This document shows, one piece after another, positions 10,918-17,692 of a stretch of DNA of 24,000 nucleotides. The notes beneath the pieces are model-generated. The model ran no database searches. It saw only the letters and a list, made by a program, of their open reading frames with translations, and had not been told where the DNA came from. The translations under genes and the position numbers were made by a program. This DNA is from Deltaproteobacteria bacterium GWF2_42_12. Lineage in GTDB: Bacteria; Desulfobacterota; GWC2-55-46; UBA9637. The stretch lies in NCBI GenBank assembly GCA_001797665.1, contig MGQA01000002.1, positions 1,195-25,194 on the forward strand, read 5' to 3'. Numbering within the stretch: the first letter of the stretch is position 1; every line of letters begins with the position of its first letter.

Positions 10918-11493
10918 TTATAATACATCTCCGCAAAAATTACGATATTCGCAGTCAAGACATTTGGCCGGAGAATTTACCGGAGGCGGAATTTGCTGGC
11001 AGTGTATCATTTTTCGGATATCGTCTAATAAATTTTTTGTTTCCTCTTTGACTTTGCCGGTTAAATCAAAAACCACAGCATCCTCTTTTGGAATTAAGTA
11101 TACAAAACCCTTATCAACATTGCGATTATATACATCTTCCAAAATTATAGCATAACCCAAAAGCTGATAAAGATGATTTTTGTGCGGCTGAGAGGTTGTA
11201 TATTTAAAATCCACAGGATAATAAGAATCTTTGGTTTTAATTAGCAAATCCACCTTGCCGGATAAAGCATATCTCTCAGAATATAATTGCTTATGAAATT
11301 CTCTCGTGCCGCTGGATAAGCCGTATTCCTTAAGTTTCCTTCTGTTTTCTAATCTGTCTATCTTATCCTCTGCTATCTTTCCATATTCCATCTTAAAGGT
11401 TGCCTTTTTCTCAACAGGCATAACATAGTTATAGAACACAACCCTTTGACAATAGACAAACTGTTTAAGGTCGCTAACCCTGAGATGAATCAT
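10918..11493 (-). CDS. cas4: CRISPR-associated Cas4 (RecB-like exonuclease with Fe-S Cys cluster)
   Basis: N-terminal ...DLKQFVYCQR..., DFKYT (D..K nuclease motif), QLLGYAIILE (QhxxY) and C-terminal CLDCEYRNFC. The preferred start is the ATG at 11493 (MIHLRVSDL..., AGGAAA upstream). The ORF is open up to 11580 and overlaps the cas2 3' end. Confidence 0.85.
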   Translation of the reverse strand: MIHLRVSDLKQFVYCQRVVFYNYVMPVEKKATFKMEYGKIAEDKIDRLENRRKLKEYGLSSGTREFHKQLYSERYALSGKVDLLIKTKDSYYPVDFKYTTSQPHKNHLYQLLGYAIILEDVYNRNVDKGFVYLIPKEDAVVFDLTGKVKEETKNLLDDIRKMIHCQQIPPPVNSPAKCLDCEYRNFCGDVL

Positions 11494-11752
11494 CTCTATT
11501 TTCCTGTATGAGTTCCCTTTTGGCATTGATGTCTTTTTCACAAACAGGGAGCATAAGGAGTTTTCCGGCTTTATCGCCAATGAGAAAGGAAAGCTTTAAA
11601 AAAAGTTCTTCGCGCTTATTTTTGCCCAACGTGCCTGAAAATCCGCTAAATTGAATCCTTTGAAGCCCATAGTCTTTGCAGGTCTCTGCCACCTTATTGC
11701 GGATGCCGTCGTCTTCTATGTCATAGAAAATATAAACAGTATGTTCTCCCAT
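11474..11752 (-). CDS. cas2: CRISPR-associated endoribonuclease Cas2
   Basis: 92 aa with VYIFYDIEDD...RNKV...YGLQRIQFSGFSG, the canonical Cas2 ferredoxin-fold signature. It lies between cas1 and cas4. Confidence 0.85.
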   Translation of the reverse strand: MGEHTVYIFYDIEDDGIRNKVAETCKDYGLQRIQFSGFSGTLGKNKREELFLKLSFLIGDKAGKLLMLPVCEKDINAKRELIQENRDDSSQG

Positions 11753-11777
11753 AATTAGTTGAAAAATGCTTTTATAT

Positions 11778-11904
11778 AGTTCACGCTCAAAAATTGCACA
11801 GATGCAAGGCGCCGAGGAGCGAGCAGCGGAGCATACGCTTTTAGGTATGTGAGCAGCGCAGCGACGAAGGCAACGCAGCAGATGGGCATTTTTCAGCGTG
11901 AACT
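11778..11904. repeat. ~127-bp palindromic (MITE/REP-like) element, copy B, between cas1 and cas2
   Basis: The ends AGTTCACGCTCAAAAATTGCACAGATGC and GCAGATGGGCATTTTTCAGCGTGAACT are inverted repeats. It is the same family as 1896-2023, in opposite orientation. It starts 2 nt after the cas1 stop and ends 25 nt before the cas2 ATG. Confidence 0.8.
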
Positions 11905-11906
11905 AA

Positions 11907-13100
11907 TTACCACTTAAACCTGAACGCCTTATATTCTCTCCTGCCGCTTAAAAAAGCCGATAGGTTTCTTGCCTGCATCTGGATAATAGACCTGATTTTA
12001 TATTTCTTGCCTTCAAATGTTTCCTGGCTTTCCAGCCTTTCTATAATTTTGCTTCCCATTGTCTTTCTTGTTTCCTCTTCAATCAATCCATTTTTCATGT
12101 TAATGGATTCTCCGAGGTTGATATGGGCAATTACAACCTTATCAACAACAGGCTGGCGGAATTCTTCAATCAGATCCAGAACAAGAGACGGCTTGCCGGG
12201 CCTGTCCACATGCAGAAATCCCGCAAATGGCTCAAGACCTGCATTTATAATTGCTCCCCAGACATGCGAATAGAGAATGCCATAACCATAATTTAAGAGA
12301 GAGTTTACCTTATCCACTGCCCCTCTTGTCTCACGGCCGAAAAACTCAACCTTTCCTGCAATAATCTCTTTGACCGCGCCCCAATATAACCTGCCTGATA
12401 TACCCTCTATTGCCATCAAACCACCTCTTGCATCTTCAATATTTTGCCCATCAATATTATCTACCTGTCCGCTCATCTTTTTAATATCATCAGCAATTCC
12501 TTCAAGTTTATTAAATCTGTCAATATCTACGGTCTTAATATACTTGCCAAAATATCTTATAAGCCTTTCCTGATTTACAATCTTTCCTTCTACAACCGCC
12601 TTTGAGAATTCAAGCCCCCTTTCATCATTAAACGCCATAATCTGCTCTCTTCTGGATACAACCGTTGCGGAGAGCATGGGCGAGGAAAGCATTGCATACG
12701 GTTTGCCGCCATTTGTCAAAAAATTCAGTCTTATCCCCCTTTGGCATAACTCTTCAACAAGGTCAGAGGATAATGACATCCCACGAGAGGCGACAATAAC
12801 CTCATTCAGTCTAAAAAAGGGAAATTCATAAATAACCTTACTGCTCTTTTTTACAATAAGGCGTTCACTCTTTTTACTTAAGAAGATGCCAAAACCTGAC
12901 AGAACTATTTGCGACGAATCTCCGCTCTGCACAAGCGAAATCCCATCGTCAACAAATATTTCATCATCAATATTTTTGTCAATCAGTTGCGGGACTGGCT
13001 CTGCTTCTCCTGTAAAGAGATTGAACTGTGCTGGCGGGAGTTTTTCCTCCGGTTGATATTCCGGATGGATGCGGAGGATTTTTGATGTTTCATTATCCAT
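11907..13100 (-). CDS. cas1: CRISPR-associated integrase Cas1 (with ~60-aa acidic N-terminal extension)
   Basis: NSLLNYGYGIL and GFLHVDRPGKPSLVLDLIEEFRQPVVD motifs. The ATG at 13100 is preceded by GAGGAGG. The ORF-track start at 13175 lacks an SD. Confidence 0.9.
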   Translation of the reverse strand: MDNETSKILRIHPEYQPEEKLPPAQFNLFTGEAEPVPQLIDKNIDDEIFVDDGISLVQSGDSSQIVLSGFGIFLSKKSERLIVKKSSKVIYEFPFFRLNEVIVASRGMSLSSDLVEELCQRGIRLNFLTNGGKPYAMLSSPMLSATVVSRREQIMAFNDERGLEFSKAVVEGKIVNQERLIRYFGKYIKTVDIDRFNKLEGIADDIKKMSGQVDNIDGQNIEDARGGLMAIEGISGRLYWGAVKEIIAGKVEFFGRETRGAVDKVNSLLNYGYGILYSHVWGAIINAGLEPFAGFLHVDRPGKPSLVLDLIEEFRQPVVDKVVIAHINLGESINMKNGLIEEETRKTMGSKIIERLESQETFEGKKYKIRSIIQMQARNLSAFLSGRREYKAFRFKW

Positions 13101-13194
13101 ATAGACCTCCTCAATATTTTCTTGATTTTTGAGGTTATGTGGTGTAACTATAAAGCAGTATACGCCATATTGCAAGCCTTACGGTGGAACATAT

Positions 13195-13431
13195 ATGAAG
13201 TTAACATATGATCCGAGATACAACATAGCTTATATTCGCCTGCATGAAAAACCAGCACAAGTGGAGACTGTGAAAATCAGCGATGAACTGAACATAGATT
13301 TGGCGCCTGATGGAACGGTCTATGGCATAGAATTGCTGAATGCCAATGAACAGTTGAAAAAAGAGGATGAGGGTAAACTCCTTGTTATTAATGAATCTAC
13401 AGGCAAGACAGCCGAAGTATCATTAGCATGA
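13195..13431 (+). CDS. DUF2283-like small protein (YuzE-like)
   Basis: MKLTYDPRYNIAYIRLHEKP...IDLAPDGTVYGIELLNA is the typical DUF2283 pattern. It is on the opposite strand to the cas genes and ends 26 nt before the first CRISPR repeat. Confidence 0.6.
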   Translation: MKLTYDPRYNIAYIRLHEKPAQVETVKISDELNIDLAPDGTVYGIELLNANEQLKKEDEGKLLVINESTGKTAEVSLA

Positions 13432-13457
13432 GTTTCGTTTCAGTGTGGTATTATGAA

Positions 13458-13860
13458 GTTACAGTTAAGGCTCTTTGAAAATATGGCGTGAAACATACAC
13501 AAATCCGAGCTCATGGTTGCCATTTTCAATCGTTACAGTTAAGGCTCTTTGAAAATATGGCGTGAAACAACTTTCGGGGCGGCCTTCCGCACAGATTGAG
13601 GAACGTTACAGTTAAGGCTCTTTGAAAATATGGCGTGAAACTTCTGAGCAGGCGGCCTACCGCAGGTATAAGAAGGAGTTACAGTTAAGGCTCTTTGAAA
13701 ATATGGCGTGAAACTTATAAAGGCGGGATGCGCCTTGCACCGCTTCACACAGTTACAGTTAAGGCTCTTTGAAAATATGGCGTGAAACATCTGCCCACGC
13801 ATATCTCCTTCGAGAAGATCGAAGTTACAGTTAAGGCTCTTTGAAAATATGGCGTGAAAC
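13458..13860 (+). CRISPR. CRISPR array: 6 identical 37-bp repeats (GTTACAGTTAAGGCTCTTTGAAAATATGGCGTGAAAC), 5 unique spacers of 37/36/36/37/35 bp
   Basis: Repeats counted directly at 13458, 13532, 13605, 13678, 13752 and 13824. The repeat is non-palindromic, as expected for type II. The strand is tentative and rests on the anti-repeat geometry; see findings. Confidence 0.97.
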
Positions 13861-13949
13861 AGCTATTGTTTTGCTGGAATTTCAAAGGGATTTTCAAAAA
13901 CAATTTATAAAATTTCCGCAAGACCATTTTTTGAAACAAACCTTAAGGG

Positions 13950-14080
13950 GTTTGCGAAATTTTAAAAGAGCCTTAATTGTAAAACGCCTATACAGTGAAG
14001 GGATATACGCTTGGGTTTGTCCAGCCTGAGCCTCTATGCCAGAAATGGCGCCTTCATCGTGGGTTAGGACATTTAATTTT
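13950..14080 (+). ncRNA. Candidate tracrRNA: 36-nt anti-repeat plus ~95-nt structured tail
   Basis: 13950-13985, GTTTGCGAAATTTTAAAAGAGCCTTAATTGTAAAAC, is an imperfect reverse complement of the full repeat, with 12 contiguous matches (AAAGAGCCTTAA). The downstream tail has hairpins (e.g. GCCA-GAAA-TGGC) and ends in ATTTAATTTT just before the cas9 stop. Strand and ends are not established. Confidence 0.5.
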
Positions 14081-14085
14081 AAAAA

Positions 14086-16329
14086 CTATTCAGCACTGTT
14101 TGCTTTTGTCAGCTTGGTGGCAGAGACAGTTCTTGTTTTTCCATCACTACCAACAACTGCTTCTATCGTAGGAGATGTTCCGAGTTTTTTTATTCTATAG
14201 ATTGCGTCTTCACCTTCAACTGTAACCATATCTCTTCGTTTTAAGGTAAATGAAACTCTCCCATTAGGCTGCGGTGGTGGTTCTATGAAGTGTTTTGACA
14301 GTCTCGGATTCTTTCGCTCATATGCTTTTTTCTTACCTTTTTCATCAAGATAAACATCCACGCCAACATTATGGACATTCGTCTTAAAAACATTATTATT
14401 GATTCTTATCATCTGCCCTGGCCCGGTTCCTTTAATGCTGCATTTAAGGCTCATAACCAATTCATTCTTCTTAATGCAAAAACCTGCTTCCTTTGCCTCC
14501 TTGTCTGTTAAACATTTTCCTTTTTTCGTATCAAATCGTTTAAAAGCCTCTTTTAGTTTTTCACGATATGTCTCGGAAATAACATCGTCTTCTTTACCGC
14601 ACTCAATCTCTGTAACCATAAATCTTCTGGTAATAATGCCCTTCTTATAAGACAGTGGGTTTCTATCATGCAATGCAGAGCCCTTGCTGCCTTTATCCCT
14701 TTTAAATTCTATCGGTTCAGGAAGGTGTTTTTCAGAGTCAAACCCTCCACCTTTATTATATTTTGGCTTAAGGGTCATATCCACCAATCCATCATCACTA
14801 TACCCTTTCCTTGAAGCAAGGATTACAGCATCAAGGGCATGATGAAGGGTGTTGCCTCTTTCCTTTTTAAATCCCCACCACCTCCTGAAATATGCAGTGT
14901 ATATGCCGCTCTGCCTCTCTATGGGCAACTTTTTATTGCCGGCAGACTCTCTTAGTCTGTCCCTCATATATCTCCAGCCGATAGAGGCATGGGACATGTA
15001 TTTATTAAAATCTACTGTATTGATATTTCGTGCGTCCTCAAGAATCTTTTTCTTTAAATCATTCTTCATGAAGGCTATTATTTCGGGTTTAGGCGAGATT
15101 CCACTTTCTAACGGAGTTCTCCCTTTTTTATTCTCATTACATACAGCGCAACATGCTACTAAATTTGCAAAGATATTTAAGCCCCCGGCCTTTCGGGGAA
15201 ATATATGGTCATCATGCGCATTGGATATGTCAATAGATTTTCCACAGTAGATACATCTACCATCCGTTTCTCGAAGAAGGGCTTCCTTTCTGGTCTCTTT
15301 GCCTTCCCTGGGCCCTTTACCATATTCTTCTTTTGCCAATCGTTTTTTCCCCTGTGTTTTGGCTGCTATATCAAAATTGTTGCTCTCCATTACCACCTTA
15401 TTGACAGTAAATTTGGGCAATATCTCGTCTTTAATAACAGCAAGGACATTCTCTATTTTTGTTTTTAAGGATGGCGCAAGACGGAAAACCTTTCGTTCCT
15501 CTTTGCTATGCTCAGTATGTTCAAGGATATGTTCTTTGCAAAAGACCGTTCTACCCGAAAGCTTGTTATCCGCTATATCATAAACCTGCTTCCTAATATG
15601 TTCATCAGTCTTATGTTTTCTGAAAAATGATTTAACTTCTTCCCTCCTGTTTTTATCAAGCACAGCATCTTTGAGATTATCCTTTTCAGATTGTTCTATA
15701 GGGAAAAATCTGACTATATTTTCTATAAGCAAATCTCTCACATTCTTTCTGAGCGGCGTATTAACTCCGCAATCTTCTACCTTACATTTAGTTAAAATCC
15801 TATTATTGAATCTTTTAGGTCGGTACTGTTTATTAAAAATCCTTTCAACCCTTTTTATCTGCTCCTCGGTTGCTCTTCCTTCAATCATTGCTTTATGGAC
15901 ATCTTTTACGACTTCTTTCCTGTGCCTTGAATTTCTTTTTGTCTCTTCCCATTCCTGTTTCTCTTTTTCCCACTGTTTGCGCTCTTCCACATCCATTGCC
16001 TCTATTTCTTCGGAAGTCTTTTCTTCAGGCATATCAGCATAATCATATCCTCTTTTATGGGCAAGGCTGTAAACCGTTTCAAATGTTGCTGTGGATTCGT
16101 TATATCCAATACTTTTTAGATAGTTTTTTAATTCACGCAGCCGCTTTTTCTTGGTTTGAGCGGTTCTTCTGATACCTCTTTGCTTTCTGCGATCTTTGAG
16201 AATACCAGCGACATCGTCCCGCATCTTCAGTCTGTTTGCATATAATACCTGATTATGCCTTCGGTCAACAACTGCAAGACCGGTATATTTGCCGCCGTAA
16301 TCAATGCCTAAAACAAGTTCTCTTTCCAT
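14086..16329 (-). CDS. cas9: Compact Cas9-like RuvC/HNH effector nuclease, 747 aa
   Basis: Ruv[18 protein letters not shown] (D10); Arg-rich bridge helix [26 protein letters not shown] (aa 45-70); Ruv[12 protein letters not shown] (E315). HNH CIYCG...[13 protein letters not shown]...[18 protein letters not shown] (D374/H375, N398). Ruv[17 protein letters not shown] (H497, D500). It sits next to the array, the anti-repeat and cas1/cas2/cas4. Confidence 0.9.
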
Positions 16330-16416: not shown

Positions 16417-16977
16417 CTACTGATTTATGGTTTTTAATATGTCCTCAAAGGTTTTCAGAAAATCCTTATTGCCAATTGATGCGTCAAACTCCTTTAACCA
16501 ACCCTGTATATATCTAATGTCAATATCAGGATTTTTTAAGAGGATTGTCCTTGCATCCTCTAAATCCCTCGGCCGTCCTGCAAATATTTTGTGTATTATG
16601 ACATCTTCTACAGAGGCAAAGCATACTTCCTGATTGAGAATATTTATACTCTTTGCCCTCTTTATCGCCTCTGTTTCATAAGGCGTAAATGAGAATATAA
16701 AGTCAACCCGTATGCCTGTAGTTTCATCCAGCGCCGGCAAGACCATAGTCTGCTTGACGAATGATTCTATGTCTTCTGGTATGGGCTTGAGTGGTATTTT
16801 TTGAAGGATTGCAAGAAGTTGATTAAGGTGATTTGTATCAACGCCGAGGGTTATATCAATATCTCTTGTGAGCCGCGGTTCTCCATACAGCAATACAGCC
16901 TGTCCGCCTATAATCATGTAGGGAATATTGCACTTAACAAGCGCTGCGCCTATCCTTGCGAGGATTTCTTCAAACAT
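16417..16977 (-). CDS. Minimal nucleotidyltransferase-fold protein (AbiEii/DUF6036-like, toxin-like)
   Basis: The N-terminal IIGGQAVLLYGEPRLTRDIDI pattern (GG-x-A...R-x-T-x-D-x-D) is typical of pol-beta superfamily minimal NTases. A small overlapping ORF precedes it. Confidence 0.55.
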   Translation of the reverse strand: MFEEILARIGAALVKCNIPYMIIGGQAVLLYGEPRLTRDIDITLGVDTNHLNQLLAILQKIPLKPIPEDIESFVKQTMVLPALDETTGIRVDFIFSFTPYETEAIKRAKSINILNQEVCFASVEDVIIHKIFAGRPRDLEDARTILLKNPDIDIRYIQGWLKEFDASIGNKDFLKTFEDILKTINQ

Positions 16978-17185: not shown

Positions 17186-17692
17186 TCAGCTAAGCAAGTT
17201 ATCACAGCCATCATTTGACTGCAATGCCTTTTCCTCAAACACCCTCCACCCTTCCTTCTTCCATCTGAAATAATCTTCCAATATCTTCTTATGGTCAAAG
17301 GCCAGAGGCTTAGGCAGATTGTCTTCTGTGAAAACGCCGATTCCTTTTGCGTCATCTCTGGCTTGCGGTGTTCCATCTGCCTCTGCAACAAATACTGTGG
17401 AAATTGTATGAAATCGGGGATCCCTCGTAGGGTTTGAATAAGAATGTAACTGGCATTTTAGTCTCACCTTCAAGGCTGTCTCTTCATGAGCTTCTCGTAT
17501 AGCCGCATCTTCCAAGGTTTCTCCATAATCCACAAAACCGCCTGGAATTGCCCAGCCAAACGGGGGATTTTTCCTCTCTATAAGGACAATCCCCCAATCC
17601 CCCCTTCCCCCCTTTGAAAAAGGGGGGTGAGGGGGGATTTTTAATTCAATTATTATATCAACTGTTGGAATAGGATTTCTAATCTTTTCCAC
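17186..17692 (-). CDS. Nudix hydrolase
   Basis: Nudix box [24 protein letters not shown] (GX5EX7REUXEEXGU). Confidence 0.85.
17588..17639. repeat. G/C-tract palindrome embedded in frame in the Nudix gene
   Basis: AATCCCCC AATCCCCCC TT CCCCCC TTTGAAAAA GGGGGG TGA GGGGGG ATT. It encodes ...[15 protein letters not shown]..., between the conserved VDIII and [10 protein letters not shown] segments. Confidence 0.7.

Follow-up and report, generated by a model that had tools for sequence, protein, structure and literature searches.

Between the CRISPR array and the nuclease gene of this deltaproteobacterial locus lies a short intergenic stretch, which raises the question of whether a trans-activating CRISPR RNA (tracrRNA) is encoded there and, if so, on which strand and over what length. 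We analyzed the whole 24,000-nt stretch of DNA containing the locus (the window). It is nearly certain that positions 13950-14080 of the plus strand encode the tracrRNA of a type II-D system that uses a strain-level variant of Cas9d-MG34-1 as its effector, a conclusion that rests on sequence identity to a published single guide RNA (sgRNA), on conserved synteny and orientation, and on covariation among homologous loci. The tracrRNA, its orientation, its fold, and its function are already published (2022, PMC9755519; 2025, PMC11706934, PMC11903963, and PMC12339737), and as a discovery the tracrRNA itself adds nothing. The locus does show that a sequence-only reading can call the strand and extent of a tracrRNA correctly for an unusual compact Cas9 subtype, and the comparative data reported here provide covariation that independently supports the cryo-EM fold with its pseudoknot. 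Feature coordinates are collected in Table 1.

Table 1. Features of the type II-D locus, in window coordinates.
Feature	Position	Strand	Remarks
Adaptation module (cas1, cas2, cas4)	10918-13175	-	On the other side of the array
cas4	10918-11580	-	
cas2	11474-11752	-	
cas1	11907-13175	-	Position as ORF; called as 397 aa
CRISPR array	13458-13860	+ (crRNA sense)	Six identical 37-nt repeats (GTTACAGTTAAGGCTCTTTGAAAATATGGCGTGAAAC), five spacers of 35-37 nt
AT-rich gap, last repeat to anti-repeat	13862-13949	+	88 nt, 31% GC
Anti-repeat	13950-13985	+	Inverted degenerate copy of the repeat; 13967-13983 is the 17-bp P1 helix of the published sgRNA
P2, 5' strand (nexus and central stem)	13985-14004	+	Pairs with 14050-14064; PMC11706934 mapping, MFE fold
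P3 hairpin	14005-14037	+	14005-14007 with 14035-14037; stem 14009-14015 with 14025-14031; loop holds GTCC (14019-14022)
P4 (stem-loop 2), GCCA-GAAA-TGGC	14038-14049	+	
P2, 3' strand	14050-14064	+	MFE fold, PMC11706934 mapping, covariation
Kissing-loop 3' partner, GGACA	14067-14071	+	Pairs with TGTCC (14018-14022)
U-rich 3' end (TTTAATTTT)	14072-14080	+	Presumed transcript end; published sgRNA ends here
cas9d, type II-D effector	14086-16329	-	747 aa; convergent with tracrRNA; assigned by NCBIfam and PDB identity

The nuclease gene had originally been read simply as cas9. A nuclease it is, but not a generic Cas9: the 747-aa product scored 530.7 bits against the NCBIfam model NF049971 CRISPR_Cas9d (cutoff, 375) and only 70.9 bits against the general Cas9 model (cutoff, 100), which, together with its identity to PDB chains, makes it a compact type II-D Cas9d. 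Both the Pfam RRXRR and HNH domains were matched, and the protein has the features used to delimit the Cas9d clade, namely, a compact Cas9 of ∼600 to 970 aa with RuvC-HNH-RuvC organization and an RRXRR motif. The effector-array adjacency of type II-D is also present, with the six-repeat array lying 225 nt from the cas9d stop codon. The product shares 743 of 747 residues (99.5%) with the Cas9d chains in PDB entries 8ZQ9, 9AUF, 8W2Z, 8ZDR, and 8W2S, which are the 747-aa Cas9d-MG34-1 of an uncultivated deltaproteobacterium (PMC11706934 and PMC11903963). The four differences from these chains, with the window residue given first, are G529E, S532P, R544M, and K549R, and we infer that the variant behaves like MG34-1. 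The exact 747-aa protein is also present on scaffold_239 of ENA assembly ERZ28564140.

The RNA of the window was compared with the published guide letter by letter. The active MG34-1 sgRNA has the form N20-GUUACAGUUAAGGCUCU-GAAA-AGAGCCUUAAUUGUAAAACGCC...GGACAUUUAAUUUU (PMC9755519, Supplementary Data 3), and the same scaffold appears in PMC11706934 (Supplementary Data 1). Its 114-nt tracr part equals window positions 13967-14080 on the plus strand with 0 mismatches, and its repeat part is identical to the opening 17 nt of each of the six plus-strand repeats. For PMC11706934, sgRNA positions were mapped as the window coordinate minus 13925 (20-nt guide). Under this mapping, 13 of the 14 nucleotides named in that paper fit the correct window letter, "G59" being the exception; fitting nucleotides are G77, A78, A80, A82, G94-C97, C107, U108, U110, and U112, and further on G125, A141, G142, and C145. 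For PMC11903963, the pairs 23G:60A, 33A:50U, 39U:44A, 115G:126C, and 118A:123U fit when the position is taken as the window coordinate minus 13923; the letters "63A" and "141A" mismatch, the window carrying G and U there.

This identity bears directly on orientation and function. The original prediction had tentatively placed crRNA and tracrRNA both on the plus strand, convergent with cas9, and the call was correct, as follows from the sequence identity to the active sgRNA together with the legend to Fig. 1 of PMC9755519, according to which the orientations of array and tracrRNA were confirmed by cleavage activity. The same legend reports RNA-seq reads on the array and intergenic region, in the same orientation, at the near-identical MG34-1 locus; environmental RNA-seq has been published for the MG34-1 and MG34-16 loci. 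The identical RNA supports RNA-guided cleavage with MG34-1 both in vitro and in E. coli. In published truncation tests, P4 was dispensable, truncation past 148A (14071) had no effect, so that the U-rich 3' end is unnecessary for activity, and loss of the kissing loop was tolerated alone but not in combination with trimming of P1 or P4. Deletion of sgRNA positions 141-158 abolished DNA targeting.

The part of the tracrRNA that follows the anti-repeat (13986-14080, plus strand) is 95 nt long with 47% GC and ends in ATTTAATTTT (14071-14080), so the expectation of a long tracrRNA with a GC-balanced tail of about 95 nt was right, in agreement with the published sgRNA. The tail contains GCCAGAAATGGC at 14038-14049, GTCC at 14019-14022, and GGAC at 14067-14070, and every element that the original prediction had listed was found in its place. 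The published descriptions give a P1 helix (PMC11706934 and PMC11903963), P2 as nucleotides 60-79 and 125-139, a kissing loop of G94-C97 with 142-146, and an A80-U112 pair that corresponds to 14005:14037 (the last three from PMC11706934). The minimum free energy (MFE) fold of the tail reproduces P2, P3, and P4, with a single-sequence z-score of only -1.74. Of the structures proposed from sequence, the GCCA-GAAA-TGGC hairpin is P4 in the cryo-EM mapping and is 100% paired across loci. GTCC and GGAC do pair, not as an enclosing nested stem but as a pseudoknot, a kissing loop that joins the P3 loop to the 3' end (PMC11706934). The local hairpin GCCTATA...TATACGC is not part of the real fold, since GCCT closes the long-range P2 with GGGT at 14061-14064; the local hairpin keeps one C:C mismatch throughout and has no pair that changes in a compensatory manner. 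As a candidate it was 85.7% paired and was rejected on the ground that it excludes P2 and P3 pairs that covary and are seen by cryo-EM. A scan of 13300-14300 against Rfam (E ≤ 10) returned chance matches to miRNA and snoRNA models only and no tracrRNA family; Rfam holds no model for the Cas9d-MG34-1 tracrRNA, so a family scan stays silent here.

A near full-length inverted copy of the repeat had been proposed as the anti-repeat, and this too proved correct. The repeat search found inverted arms at 13954-13982, showing 86% complementarity, across 29 nt, with every one of the six repeats. A search with the 24-nt repeat core (≤3 mismatches) returned the six plus-strand repeats and one minus-strand copy at 13960-13983, which has 3 mismatches to the repeat and is the sole inverted copy within the window (0 expected in shuffles; n = 100). 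Repeat positions 2-19 form 18 contiguous pairs with the anti-repeat, including one G-U wobble (repeat G7 with T13977), followed by a G20-A mismatch and by pairing of positions 21-25; natural pairing can extend to about 13960. Position 1 forms a G-A mismatch in the cryo-EM model; alternatively, as first suggested, G1 pairs with C13985 and leaves an AA bulge. The duplex energy in the window is -31.3 kcal/mol. Repeat positions 1-24 are invariant among loci and the 3' third is variable, a pattern that fits a crRNA retaining the 5' part of the plus-strand repeat. The ten bases at the 5' end of the anti-repeat (13950-13959, GTTTGCGAAA) are invariant in 8 of 8 loci, and the 3' third of the repeat that faces them differs between loci (GGCGTGAAAC, CGACTGTAAC, GGACTGAAAC, TGATTGAAAC, and AGATTGATAC). 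These ten bases seem to be kept for something other than pairing, perhaps a promoter or processing.

Covariation in homologous loci had been named as a check on the tracrRNA call. Genome and metagenome scans yielded twelve loci; seven distinct ones, each with its downstream region complete, encode a Cas9d 65-84% identical to that of the window. These seven (L001, L002, L003, L004, L006, L008, and L009) and the window made up the set of eight sequences. In all seven homologous loci the layout is the same, with the cas9d stop codon followed by a tracrRNA on the opposite strand, a gap, and an array on the tracrRNA strand. Over the eight-sequence alignment, P2, P3, P4, and the pseudoknot are 97.3% paired, and 5 pairs show compensatory changes; in slid controls, with the 3' partners moved by 1 to 3 columns, 33-44% were paired and the covariation score was at most 0.073, compared with 0.221 for the fold itself. 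Since one sequence of the alignment had supplied the structure, the paired-cell measure is inflated, but the compensatory changes are not. P2 (helices 1 and 2) is 98-100% paired, with 2 compensatory pairs. In P3, 14005:14037 changes from A-U to G-C in 4 loci and 14010:14030 from C-G to U-A in 4 loci, and one compensatory change falls in P4. In L002, L003, and L009 the kissing pair is replaced by ATATCG-CC with GG-A-CGATAT, at a similar duplex energy. We conclude that the published fold is supported by comparative evidence across the eight sequences.

Taken together, these observations give the following mechanism. The array is transcribed on the plus strand, like the tracrRNA, and the first ∼17 to 25 nt of the repeat, 3' of the spacer, pair with about 13960-13983 to form P1. 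The 95-nt tail folds into P2, P3, P4, and the kissing-loop pseudoknot (14018-14022 with 14067-14071), and in the published MG34-1 structures (PMC11706934 and PMC11903963) such a fold stands in for the absent REC2/REC3 mass and scaffolds the small Cas9d domains, allowing the complex to make NGG PAM-dependent double-strand cuts in DNA. Pairing, folding, and cleavage are shown in the published system, whose guide scaffold is identical to the RNA of the window. For the window, the native 5' and 3' ends of the tracrRNA and the placement of its promoter are putative, and the repeat:anti-repeat duplex would presumably be processed by RNase III.

Signals for transcription were sought by consensus scans. 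No canonical hairpin-plus-U terminator was found at the tracrRNA 3' end (14080) and no convincing sigma-70 promoter for the tracrRNA, only weak promoter-like sites at 13841-13869 (plus strand). Promoter-like sites numbered 6, against 2.7 ± 1.5 expected, and none is convincingly conserved across loci. At the convergent tracrRNA/cas9d junction (14081-14088), a terminator was called on neither strand. The cas9d stop codon (TAG on the minus strand) occupies 14086-14088, and five A residues make up the 5-nt spacing from the tracrRNA 3' end. The cas9d mRNA probably extends, at its 3' end, into the tracrRNA gene in antisense orientation.

The gap that separates the last repeat from the anti-repeat measures 88 nt in every one of the eight loci except L004, where it is 87 nt, despite only 52-78% identity (L001, 6452-6540; L008, 2823-2911; L004, 4154-4241; L002, 3854-3942; L006, 6356-6444; L009, 2751-2839; L003, 6415-6503). 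The better conserved tracrRNA, with 81-98% identity in its tail, still tolerates 8 to 14 gapped columns against the more divergent loci. Two blocks in the gap are conserved, TTCAAAG (13881-13887) and TTTTTTGAAA (13926-13935), and they are inverted copies of each other. Plus-strand RNA structure in the gap was considered and rejected (RNAalifold, -4.0 kcal/mol; 0 compensatory pairs in 8 loci; z = +0.24 against shuffles). The gap is probably a leader (the integration end) with fixed-distance motifs, the tracrRNA promoter, or both. A role for an invariant-length, leader-like gap is without description in the cited Cas9d literature.

One explanation for the constant gap refines the tracrRNA assignment and does not replace it: array and tracrRNA might form a single plus-strand unit in which read-through transcription would allow pairing in cis between the last repeat and the anti-repeat. 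The two elements do lie on the same strand, with no terminator-like site between 13861 and 13950 (plus strand), and the published legend has array and intergenic reads in the same orientation. In the predicted fold of a 292-nt joint transcript (13789-14080), the last repeat was paired with the anti-repeat (MFE, -90.3 kcal/mol; z = -5.5). Such pairing is, however, a trivial consequence of complementarity, and the constant gap length is equally well explained by fixed-distance leader integration motifs or by promoter spacing. Characterized tracrRNAs, moreover, are known to have promoters of their own. We therefore regard joint transcription as unlikely. Likewise, it is a long shot that pre-crRNA and tracrRNA of the MG34 family form one RNA that would serve as a natural single-guide precursor favoring the newest spacer. 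If this were true, the memory held in the newest (leader-proximal) spacer would be favored, an arrangement that the cited Cas9d literature does not describe.

The position of the leader also bears on strand. Variant repeats occur at the tracr-distal end of the array in L004, where the first repeat reads AATTCAGTT...GTAAA, and in L003, where the first two repeats are affected; repeat remnants lie past the tracr-distal end in L002 and L003. The window array has six identical repeats, the first of them only 26 nt past the stop codon of the upstream ORF. Degenerate repeats at the transcription-upstream end imply spacer acquisition at the last repeat, next to the tracrRNA, so the gap is probably the leader and the array is transcribed towards it; the earlier impression that this AT-rich sequence looks like a leader thus appears right. 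A search for spacers common to different loci, made by comparing arrays across homologous loci for acquisition polarity, found none.

These features could be taken to mean that crRNA and tracrRNA come from the minus strand, co-directional with cas9d, with the AT-rich sequence 13949-13862 as the tracrRNA tail. Leaders usually lie upstream of array transcription, and with array-distal repeats degenerate in L003 and L004, the type II-A convention would start transcription from the gap. However, arrays in type II-C systems are also transcribed towards the spacer-acquisition end, with mutated repeats at the transcription-upstream end (PMC12080349), so the strand cannot be read off from where the leader lies. 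The evidence that does bear on the strand argues against the minus. Folding of the minus-strand tail, originally noted as poorly structured, does not surpass that of shuffled sequence (z = +0.81), and the gap shows no covariation. A duplex of plus-strand repeat and anti-repeat is more stable than its minus-strand counterpart by 3.6-9.4 kcal/mol in 8 of 8 loci, because G-U wobbles turn into C-A mismatches on the other strand. In addition, the plus-strand tail is conserved with compensatory changes, and its sequence is that of the sgRNA that supports cleavage and is resolved by cryo-EM. We consider minus-strand transcription of the guide RNAs barely conceivable.

That 13950-13985 is instead a decayed fossil repeat without RNA function, and the tail no more than the 3' untranslated region (UTR) or terminator region of cas9d, deserves hardly any credence: the anti-repeat is degenerate, with 3 mismatches across its 24-nt core, its position next to the cas9d stop codon would put its reverse complement in the cas9d 3' UTR, and neither promoter nor terminator can be called for a tracrRNA, but the tail is 81-98% identical across loci compared with 52-78% for the neighboring gap, its multi-helix fold is kept through compensatory changes, the scaffold is seen bound to Cas9d in solved structures, and the published 141-158 deletion abolishes DNA targeting.

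Several further observations concern the genes and spacers around the plus-strand tracrRNA and its array. The array repeat terminates in a GAAAC motif, a repeat end familiar from type I and type III repeats. Cas1 scored best on type I-like models (I-D, 158 bits; I-C, 155 bits; Cas4g/Cas1g, 165 bits), the type II Cas1 model gave it 82 bits, under the cutoff of 120, and cas4 is also present. The adaptation module may be of non-type II ancestry. The genomic context of MG34-1 in the 2022 discovery paper matches, with cas1, cas2, and cas4 beside the array (PMC9755519). The crRNA strand carries a small DUF2283 ORF (13129-13431, plus strand) between cas1 and the array; it is the ORF whose stop codon precedes the first repeat by 26 nt, and the arrangement is repeated in L008. 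A weak promoter-like site within its 3' end (13396-13423, plus strand) could drive the pre-crRNA.

Among the spacers, spacer 2 (13569-13604) and spacer 3 (13642-13677) have in common a 14-nt motif, GGCGGCCT(T/A)CCGCA, placed at much the same offset in both. Spacer 4 (13715-13751) includes GGCGGGATGCGCC. These motifs gave rise to the 146-nt period reported by Tandem Repeats Finder, and the spacers may derive from related or repeated protospacers. Directly upstream of cas9d and on the same strand are a gene for an AbiEii/DUF6036-type nucleotidyltransferase, a putative toxin (16417-16977, minus strand), and one for a NUDIX hydrolase (17186-17692, minus strand). In L013 a 73-aa ORF was called just ahead of the AbiEii/DUF6036-type gene, and the window has a small ORF there too. 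The nucleotidyltransferase and the NUDIX hydrolase may be defense-island neighbors of cas9d.

Among characterized systems, Cas9d-MG34-1 (Aliaga Goltsman et al. 2022, PMC9755519; Ocampo et al. 2025, PMC11706934; PMC11903963) matches the window in the 114 nt of its tracr part, in the first 17 nt of its repeat, in its cas1, cas2, and cas4 neighbors, and in P1 to P4 and the kissing loop, which map base for base; the proteins agree at 743 of 747 residues, the window protein carrying its four substitutions at 529, 532, 544, and 549. The sgRNA of NsCas9d (Nitrospirae bacterium RBG_13_39_12; PMC12339737; PDB 9LGI) corresponds to locus L004/L010, and the L004 sequence was used for the comparison. Like the window, NsCas9d has a convergent tracrRNA abutting the stop codon, repeats of ∼37 nt, a P1 helix whose base is a G-A mismatch and which contains one G-U wobble, and a scaffold of ∼94 nt with a pseudoknot joining the 3' end to the P3 loop. 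Its protein is 71% and its tracrRNA 87% identical to those of the window; it differs in the 3' third of the repeat (…ACAACGACTGTAAC) and at several stem positions that have changed compensatorily.

With type II-C systems of the N. meningitidis and C. jejuni type, the window family shares a dual-RNA guide, an anti-repeat at the 5' end of the tracrRNA, an array that appears to be transcribed towards its acquisition end, and mutated repeats at the upstream end. It differs in that Cas9d is about 300 aa smaller, its tracrRNA scaffold is larger and pseudoknotted, Cas1 scores best on type I-like models, and cas4 is present. The repeats were also searched for an internal conserved promoter of the type II-C kind, without success, the TGAAAATAT motif not being conserved in homologous repeats. 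With the ωRNA of IscB, finally, the window guide shares the principle of a large structured guide RNA that substitutes for REC protein mass, and the nexus/pseudoknot architecture of such guides is described as resembling the 5' part of ωRNA (PMC12339737). The ωRNA, however, is a single RNA of ∼200 to 400 nt with neither a CRISPR array nor a separate crRNA, whereas the guide of the window is array derived and pairs through repeat and anti-repeat.
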